5,694 nucleotides of DNA from a virus (lineage: Duplodnaviria; Heunggongvirae; Uroviricota; Caudoviricetes): IMG/VR virus record IMGVR_UViG_2698536559_000015; one strand, given 5' to 3'. This document shows positions 2,508 through 3,389 of the stretch, in pieces (position 1 is the first letter of the stretch; each line of letters begins with the position of its first letter). The notes beneath the pieces were generated by a model. The model worked only from the letters and a program-made list of their open reading frames with translations, was not told where the DNA came from and ran no database searches. A program made the position numbers and the translations under genes.

Positions 2508-3389
2508 CTAGATCAATTTTTTCCCTTGAATCACGCGATGACGAAGTACTTTCTTGATAACATACTTTTCTGTTTGTCCTCGTGCGGAAGTTGTACGTGT
2601 TGTTTCTAGAAGCACAGAAAACATATCTTCACTTGTGATCGTTCCCTCTGCTTGCCTTACTTTAGCTAAAAACTCATAGTCTGTAAGTAGTACGGAGTGC
2701 TCATCTTGGTTGTAGTCCATCCTCCACCCCTTCTCACTATGAAAGTTAACTTGGGTAAATTTTACATTAACCTCTTTTTCTTCAACTGTTTTGGTCAAAA
2801 GCGTCCCTCTGGGAAGGGGTTTAATCTCTTCAGTTTGCTCTCCTTCAAGCTTGAGCAAAACTTTATCATTCTCATCTACAATTTTAAAAATGGGAGAGTC
2901 TTTACCATCTAAAGGAGCCTGAACAACAGAAATCAACGCATCCCGAATTGTTGGCTCAGTTACCAAGGTTGCAACTGCTGATGAGCATTCAATCTCACCA
3001 TCTTCAAATTCAAGAACAGCCTTATCTGTTCCTGCTTTTTTGGTAATCGAAACAACTTTTTTTGAGCCTAATTGTCTTATTAACGATAAAGCGGTGGCAT
3101 GAGCTGTTGCGCCCACAGTTCCAACAATCCCGATAGTTTGCAGAACGTCAATTGCATGCGGTAGGAGTTGCACTACAGTATATGCAATACCCACAGATCC
3201 TTTCTGGATGGGGGCAGTGACTAAAATTTTTACAGATTTGTTGCCCTCATTTAACAAGCTATCAGCTTTATTAATAAGAGTTGTCATGGAAAGTATTGAT
3301 TTACCAAGTGTTTCAGCGTCAATAGCATGCTTTGACAATTCTTTATCATTGGCGTCATAAAACACCTTAAAGGAAGTTGACTTCTCCAT
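2508..3389 (-). CDS. 293-aa soluble hypothetical protein; first gene of the low-GC minus-strand operon (candidate sensor/effector of a defence-like module)
   Basis: Uninterrupted 293-codon frame in AT-rich DNA, where long ORFs are unlikely by chance. ATG at 3389-3387 is preceded by SD AAGGA with about 5 nt spacing. I see no Walker, HNH, TIR or other catalytic motif by eye. Family unknown to me. Confidence 0.8.
   Translation of the reverse strand: MEKSTSFKVFYDANDKELSKHAIDAETLGKSILSMTTLINKADSLLNEGNKSVKILVTAPIQKGSVGIAYTVVQLLPHAIDVLQTIGIVGTVGATAHATALSLIRQLGSKKVVSITKKAGTDKAVLEFEDGEIECSSAVATLVTEPTIRDALISVVQAPLDGKDSPIFKIVDENDKVLLKLEGEQTEEIKPLPRGTLLTKTVEEKEVNVKFTQVNFHSEKGWRMDYNQDEHSVLLTDYEFLAKVRQAEGTITSEDMFSVLLETTRTTSARGQTEKYVIKKVLRHRVIQGKKLI

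Follow-up and report, generated by a model that had tools for sequence, protein, structure and literature searches.

Gene A, encoded in the late-regulatory region of an Escherichia coli lambdoid prophage, is related, by profile comparison, to gp29 of mycobacteriophage MichelleMyBell, of which it is a distant homologue over the full length. The window analysed, the whole stretch of 5,694 nucleotides of Caudoviricetes DNA (IMG/VR record IMGVR_UViG_2698536559_000015), holds gene A at the head of three tightly spaced minus-strand open reading frames (ORFs), A, B and C, which lie between the antiterminator gene Q and a group of tRNA genes and run antisense to the phage genes (Table 1). We consider it probable that A forms the core of an anti-phage module that is carried by a prophage and belongs to the MichelleMyBell gp29/gp30 (PDC-S42) type; the module would act at the membrane to bring about abortive infection. 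The defence role proposed for A-B-C rests on homology to an experimentally described system, on the accessory and defence-island contexts of the family in many lineages, and on its candidate status in PADLOC.

A search of Pfam with A returned nothing at E ≤ 0.1, and none of Pfam, NCBIfam and PHROG named a function for A, B or C. A does match the PADLOC model PDC-S42 (PDLC05015; E = 4.1e-27; residues 5–286 against profile positions 4–291 of 302), PHROG 3243 over its full length (E = 3e-58; function not assigned) and NCBIfam NF053583, named 'LAPAL motif-containing putative phage structural protein', at 190.1 bits (cut-off 60). The lead to gp29 that proved decisive was a Vibrio prophage homologue of A that its depositors had labelled 'MMB_gp29_gp30__gp29'. 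In the remote-homology search that an earlier note on this DNA had suggested, a profile of 74 diverse A-family members aligned with gp29 in hhalign at 98.5% and E = 3.4e-15 over 265 columns (7–288 against 10–296). Additionally, gp29 matches the same PDC-S42 hidden Markov model as A (E = 1.6e-16), and pairwise BLASTP aligns the C-terminal domains of the two proteins at 29% identity over 84 residues (E = 5e-6). It is on these three comparisons that the homology to gp29 stands. The residues common to A and gp29 comprise a histidine of the N-terminal helix, a G-S pair, P159, W222, D237/F240 and a C-terminal HR.

Gene A is a genuine, strongly conserved gene under purifying selection and not a chance ORF. 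Compared with a 90%-identical orthologue, its ratio of nonsynonymous to synonymous substitution rates (dN/dS) is 0.035, the corresponding proportions of changed sites being 0.055 (pN) and 0.66 (pS). Homologues of the same length as A form 87 clusters at 90% identity in Enterobacterales, and an exhaustive profile search collected 2179 A-family clusters at 50% identity (E ≤ 1e-3), 891 of them at E ≤ 1e-10. Nearly all of these clusters measure 280–320 residues and share one architecture. The translation of A agrees with the text quoted in the earlier note, in which the minus strand had gone unstated. Likewise, the absence of any motif recognisable by eye is borne out by Pfam, which has no family for A, and by structure searches, which returned no enzyme fold; the basic C-terminal tail is also present as described. 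The richness in lysine and glutamate that had been noted is, by count, only mild (29 lysines and 24 glutamates, with a net charge of −2).

The AlphaFold2 (AF2) model of A, computed from a 23-sequence alignment, has a mean predicted local distance difference test score (pLDDT) of 84 and a predicted template modelling score (pTM) of 0.76, and divides the protein into four parts, namely three domains and a hydrophobic segment (Table 1). In the C-terminal unit, strands and helix follow in the order strand-strand-strand-helix-strand-strand, as in the oligonucleotide/oligosaccharide-binding (OB) fold. In a set of 136 diverse family members, conservation falls on Y11, D12, H21, L28, G64, S65, G87, R149, P159, W222 (invariant), D237 and F240. 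These residues do not make up a recognisable catalytic set, since C135 is not conserved; the idea that H21, D24 and C135 form a catalytic triad was accordingly rejected, both C135 and D24 varying across the family. Foldseek comparison of the model with the PDB, a check that had also been suggested beforehand, gave nothing below E = 0.01 and no enzyme fold, and PDB sequence searches with A alone and with the family profile gave nothing below E = 0.07. Structure matches in BFVD consist of three uncharacterised phage proteins, one of which is a gp29 fragment of the Cluster N phage Pipsqueaks. In distant members of the family, the first ~40 residues bear a weak likeness to the beginning of DUF7946, itself an uncharacterised Pfam family: sub-threshold matches occur in 17 of 74 A-family members and cover residues 4–41 in P0187, the sole member examined. 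The earlier suggestion that A is a sensor or an enzymatic component is supported in part; neither an enzymatic fold nor an enzymatic motif was found.

A feature of A that bears on the proposed mechanism is a hydrophobic segment, residues 82–104 (GIVGTVGATAHATALSLI), in which 23 consecutive residues lack D, E, K and R and the 19-residue Kyte-Doolittle mean reaches 1.55. A basic patch (R105...K110 K111) comes directly after it, with residues 100–107 helical in the AF2 model and residues 91–95 falling below a pLDDT of 50. The same arrangement recurs throughout the family: the uncharged stretch has a median length of 19 residues and begins near residue 85, with the hydrophobicity maximum at median position 86; small residues (G, A, S or T) make up 43% of the stretch, 90% of members carry a small-xx(x)-small motif, and in the 11 residues after the segment the net charge has a median of +3 and the consensus is like KQLKGRK. 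We regard the segment as a candidate membrane-insertion or oligomerisation element. The statement in the earlier note that A has no transmembrane (TM) segment therefore holds in so far as the hydropathy stays below the cut-off (1.55 against 1.6), but it passes over the uncharged Gly/Ala-rich stretch.

To place A among its relatives, locus contexts were taken mostly from IMG/VR and from exact-protein look-ups, a scan of genome contigs contributing 2 loci. Specifically, B and C follow A and are in turn followed by a convergent Q in all 54 loci that were fetched with A on the plus strand and at least 53% identical to the A of the window. In strain E10, which was obtained in the opposite orientation, the RefSeq annotation gives the same A-B-C order. 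Within the enterobacterial/Vibrio clade as a whole, two membrane ORFs come after A at 74 of 74 loci, with A identity down to 27%. Where A is 27–34% identical, an ORF of about 80 codons with an N-terminal hydrophobic helix precedes one of about 125–130 codons with one or two such helices; sequence likeness of these partners to B and C is lost, and the prophage site varies (after Rz, convergent on Q, or next to an integrase). The cassette is also found in a Vinavirales prophage and on a Mob_Pre mobilisable element.

Gene B itself, which matches no family in PADLOC, Pfam, PHROG or NCBIfam, has a dN/dS of 0.12. For gene C, pN lies well below pS, an alternative TTG start at 2272 would extend the product to 143 residues, and homologues come from Enterobacterales only, lying two genes from A wherever locus tags are given. 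Its only holin match is PHROG 565 (E = 0.028, over 38 residues only); neither Pfam nor NCBIfam returns a holin match for C, which runs antisense to the lysis operon.

Distinct from this three-gene form, a sister clade of proteins of about 300–320 residues bears the literal LAPAL motif in the N-terminal helix, and no TM ORF lies downstream at 55 of its 56 distinct IMG/VR loci. The earlier note had asked whether homologues of A always co-occur with two small membrane genes; they do so in the clade of A and not in its sister clade. Prophage and defence-island contexts were both encountered. Among the sister-clade members, one adjoins BrxR and an SNF2/NOV_C helicase in Pseudomonas aeruginosa, one adjoins PglZ-SNF2, one lies directly 3' of a cI-like repressor gene, and others occupy the early region of prophages; in Lactobacillus phage A2 the gene sits between endolysin and integrase, and in a Listeria phage it belongs to the lysogeny module. 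The single-gene clade is marked by the sequence ...V[RK][DE]LAPA and scores about E = 1e-102 on the PDC-S42 model, against 4e-27 for A. The literal LAPAL motif is absent from A and from its clade, and the homologous stretch of A reads ...DAETLGKSIL. The PADLOC and NCBIfam models are thus centred on the single-gene clade, and the 'S' (single-gene) class to which PADLOC assigns PDC-S42 does not describe A, which in its own clade always comes with B and C. Close relatives of A number 68 loci in IMG/VR prophage contigs, and tblastn found none in 50,697 GenBank phage isolates; the isolates that do carry family members, all distant, include Lactobacillus A2, Listeria and Bifidobacterium phages and mycobacteriophages.

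Two Vibrio loci (L074 and L075, 8800–12500) share the left flank, with Fic and HNH_2 genes, and the A-B-C cassette, and differ on the right, where SIR2_2 and DUF87 genes stand in one and AAA_13/SMC_N in the other; from its gene content, the locus looks like a variable defence hotspot. A contig labelled Vagococcus sp. WN89Y (NZ_JBQPOM010000057.1) carries DUF968, a Q that is 66% identical to that of the window and the A-B-C cassette, and this enterobacterial-type lambdoid region under a Gram-positive label probably reflects contamination or mis-binning.

The view that A stands first in a horizontally acquired operon, put forward in the earlier note, is confirmed by the setting of the cassette. 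Its guanine-plus-cytosine content is about 40%, against 52–56% in the flanks, and its genes are closely spaced on one strand. Moreover, the whole cassette occurs in 20 of 5426 complete E. coli genomes, at 99.8–99.9% identity, always inside a prophage and in the same gene order, although parts of the window region are matched in 1317 of these genomes. Q ends at 1805 and C at 1841, with a GC-rich hairpin separating the two convergent genes, and this hairpin could be a bidirectional terminator for both the Q and the C transcripts. The cassette has a candidate terminator hairpin of its own and presumably a promoter of its own, which is expected in a non-coding stretch upstream of A that is bounded by a minus-strand terminator-like hairpin at 3499–3485. 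As an accessory cassette that has its own hairpin, occupies the interval from Q to the late-promoter region and is read in antisense to the phage genes, A-B-C is presumably expressed in the lysogen. Antiterminated read-through from Q, dependent on N, would run antisense over the cassette upon prophage induction.

Table 1. Features of the window that are discussed in the text; position 1 is the first nucleotide of the window.
Feature	Position	Strand	Description and basis
DUF968/HNH gene	14–1069	+	ORF, Pfam
RusA	~1184–1447	+	ORF, Pfam
Q antiterminator	1434–1805	+	ORF, Pfam
Hairpin	1822–1841	.	GC-rich, perfect 8 bp with T-runs (AAACGGCC-TAAG-GGCCGTTT); terminator scan
Gene C	1841–2239	-	132 residues (RefSeq start); two-TM hairpin, charged helical C-terminal tail
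Gene B	2229–2492	-	87 residues; one N-terminal TM helix, small soluble tail; ORF and hydropathy
Gene A	2508–3389	-	293 residues; ORF, family matches to gp29/PDC-S42/PHROG 3243/NCBIfam NF053583
A, C-terminal barrel (residues 198–285)	2535–2798	-	Five-stranded, helix between strands 3 and 4; invariant W222, near-invariant D237 and F240
A, middle alpha/beta domain (residues 112–190)	2820–3056	-	AF2; conserved R149, P159
A, hydrophobic segment (residues 82–104)	3078–3146	-	Uncharged, Gly/Ala-rich (G87xxG90xxG93); hydropathy, family analysis
A, N-terminal beta-alpha-beta-beta domain (residues 1–75)	3165–3389	-	AF2; conserved Y11, D12, H21, L28, G64, S65
Shine-Dalgarno-like AAGGA	3395–3399	-	5 nt 5' of the ATG of gene A; read from the sequence
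Upstream non-coding stretch	3400–3484	-	Expected to hold the cassette promoter
tRNA genes Met(CAT), Lys(TTT), Arg(TCT)	3686–3926	+	

The interval between Q and the late promoter is a known slot for accessory genes. Window positions 3466–3574 are about 85% identical to the region of Shigella phage SfIV that immediately precedes the holin gene, and this resemblance places the cassette between Q and the late-promoter region; the comparison suggests that the interval is a recurrent insertion slot. In SfIV, two minus-strand accessory genes likewise precede the region upstream of the holin gene.

The MichelleMyBell gp29/gp30 system, reportedly described by Dedrick et al. in 2017 and entered in DefenseFinder as MMB_gp29_gp30, provides the closest experimental reference for A. 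To our knowledge, this type of defence is generally treated as actinobacteria-specific. The gp29 protein has 310 residues, gp30, encoded directly after it, has 67 residues and two hydrophobic helices, and the pair is located between the lysis genes and the integrase. In line with the full-length homology, A is of similar size, and both are encoded by prophage accessory genes outside the core modules that are directly followed by one or more genes for small membrane proteins. The two systems differ in their partners, a one-TM B and a two-TM C with a helical tail on the one side and a single two-TM gp30 on the other, and in their setting, A-B-C belonging to a Gram-negative host, a lambdoid prophage and the Q/late-promoter site. 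One account describes gp29-gp30 as a toxic protein with a putative membrane protein, a pair that defends against lytic phages by a mechanism given as unknown (PMC11856565). According to two others, the MichelleMyBell prophage lowers the plating of Tweety by 4–5 orders of magnitude and is counteracted by Tweety gp54 (PMC8549241), and the defence is 'typical of abortive infection systems' while allowing adsorption and DNA injection (PMC6426606).

In the Cluster N phages Pipsqueaks, Melville and Tapioca, the match to gp29 is split into two or three pieces that are annotated as two or three genes. Some relatives of MichelleMyBell appear to carry a disrupted defence gene. PDC-S42, the LAPAL motif, DUF7946 and the accession of A, WP_021526742, found no mention in the literature searched. 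An H-NS/PDC-S preprint deals with PDC-S11 and PDC-S12 and not with PDC-S42, and the Tai (tail assembly inhibition) systems returned by the literature search are unrelated to A.

On these grounds, we propose that A is a soluble three-domain protein that would be kept inactive until infection by another phage triggers it, possibly via the C-terminal OB-like barrel, its most conserved part. Triggered A would then act on the inner membrane through the uncharged Gly/Ala-rich segment and the basic patch, together with B and C, and the cell would be de-energised or killed before the invader finishes its cycle, which amounts to abortive infection. We infer what triggers A, its target at the membrane and the parts played by B and C. 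In particular, B and C would serve as membrane partners specific to their clade (a docking site, a regulator or a co-effector) and not as the sole effector, because the large sister clade has A alone and the mycobacteriophage homologue is reportedly toxic on its own. A is favoured as both the trigger-responsive element and the effector because the family is widespread without partners and includes that toxic homologue, and because the conserved hydrophobic segment and its basic patch belong to A itself. A bolder version, which we put forward only tentatively and think unlikely in its full form, is that the family consists of latent membrane-inserting effectors: the barrel would sense a phage product and release a glycine-zipper-like helix, which would insert into the inner membrane and oligomerise, unaided in the single-gene clade and nucleated by B/C or gp30 elsewhere, while the resident prophage is perhaps protected from itself at induction by antisense read-through from Q.

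The constant presence of B and C in the enterobacterial/Vibrio clade also fits a different division of labour, in which the part of A is confined to sensing or activation in the cytoplasm and B and C together form an ion channel or a holin-like depolarising pore. This has been proposed for lambda RexA/RexB and Sbash gp30/gp31, pairs of a DUF4747 protein and a four-TM membrane protein for which PMC6426596 describes abortive infection via membrane depolarisation. The architecture agrees in outline, as both are prophage cassettes of a soluble protein of about 280–300 residues followed by one or more small membrane proteins (PMC6426596). Relatives of A also lie 3' of a cI-like repressor gene, as the Rex genes do, the two-TM hairpin of C resembles class II holins, with the weak PHROG match mentioned above, and the OB-like domain in the model of A could bind phage nucleic acid or protein. 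On the other hand, A has neither sequence nor fold similarity to RexA or to the Sbash protein: DUF4747 was detected neither in A (Pfam, E ≤ 0.1) nor in 74 family members. Furthermore, A carries a hydrophobic segment of its own and is widespread without a partner, and its partners contribute one hydrophobic helix (B) and two (C) in place of a four-TM protein. We see this Rex-like arrangement as a possible alternative for the enterobacterial/Vibrio clade, with a low probability.

A role at the envelope other than abortive infection would have A-B-C sit at the inner membrane and block DNA entry, or disturb the lysis timing of an incoming or the resident phage. Superinfection exclusion proteins are common among prophage accessory genes at such sites, Charlie gp32 being an example. 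Two membrane proteins are present, and the cassette adjoins the lysis cassette in several prophages, following Rz in five loci (L056–L060) and lying between Q and the holin gene in another (L003). The MichelleMyBell system, by comparison, is described as permitting adsorption and DNA injection; single-gene relatives of A lack any membrane partner, and the family is also found in non-phage defence islands, far from lysis genes. Exclusion consequently appears improbable, and less likely than the Rex-like arrangement.

Several points weigh against A-B-C being a gp29/gp30-type defence module that acts at the membrane. The identity of A to gp29 is about 19% over the profile alignment, and pairwise similarity is detectable only in the C-terminal 84 residues. 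Family alignments of B and C compared with gp30 by hhalign reach probabilities of 0.3% and 1.0%, that is, no detectable homology. The gp29/gp30 phenotype as used here comes from secondary descriptions, and PDC-S42 is a computational candidate only. Expression of A-B-C in the lysogen, presumed above, is a prediction only, and no minus-strand sigma-70 consensus was found in the stretch upstream of A. As to the segment, its hydropathy falls short of the value commonly required of a TM helix (1.55 against 1.6), and AF2 encloses it in a compact model, so that it could be merely a buried or an oligomerisation element. Finally, in two Mu-like prophages (L077, 7001–7948; L169, 6001–6942), a single-gene homologue lies co-oriented inside the head-gene module, between Phage_tail_S and protease/scaffold or capsid genes.

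The position in the Mu-like head modules probably explains why NCBIfam calls the family a structural protein, and together with the 190-bit match of A to NF053583 it is what speaks for a role of A in phage structure or morphogenesis. Yet the Mu-like homologues are set off by gaps of 74–280 bp, unlike their tightly packed neighbours, and A is antisense to all phage late genes, its cassette ending at a hairpin of its own. A structural gene would also be hard to reconcile with the 20 of 5426 E. coli genomes that hold the cassette although related prophages are common, with the lack of a close relative by tblastn in the phage isolates, or with relatives in lysogeny modules, non-phage islands and mobilisable elements; the LAPAL motif in the family name is, moreover, not literally present in A. 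Taken together, a structural role is very unlikely, and the least probable of the explanations considered.

What the present analysis adds to an already catalogued family (PDC-S42, NF053583 and PHROG 3243), of which one member system has been published, is fourfold. First, profile comparison joins the gp29/gp30 and PDC-S42 entries in one large family. Second, the breadth of this family emerges, its range taking in Proteobacteria, Actinobacteria and Lactobacillus, Listeria and Bifidobacterium phages. Third, the analysis delineates a conserved three-gene enterobacterial/Vibrio form, the partners of which have no detectable likeness to gp30; because this form lies in E. coli lambdoid prophages, it offers a genetically tractable system for the study of mechanism. 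Fourth, the conserved hydrophobic segment is a mechanistic lead. The assignment also corrects the database name 'phage structural protein', which is probably misleading. If A does insert into membranes, it would represent a new type of effector in bacterial immunity; if it does not, gene A would remain an ordinary defence gene among prophage accessory genes, from a family already catalogued.

The region beyond the cassette shows variation of its own. The prophage of strain E10 carries Ile, Lys, Thr and Gly tRNA genes beside an identical A-B-C cassette, and since this set differs from that of the window, the tRNA cluster adjoining the cassette is itself variable; the first tRNA of the window, Met(CAT) here, is labelled tRNA-Ile by RefSeq. 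On the 3' side of the tRNA genes, Pfam identifies a TerB-like ORF and a DUF1737 gene. The TerB-like ORF (4070–4531, plus strand) has an in-frame stop at 4235–4237, with the part after the stop (4385–4531) matching Pfam TerB, and is probably a pseudogene or else a sequencing or recoding oddity.

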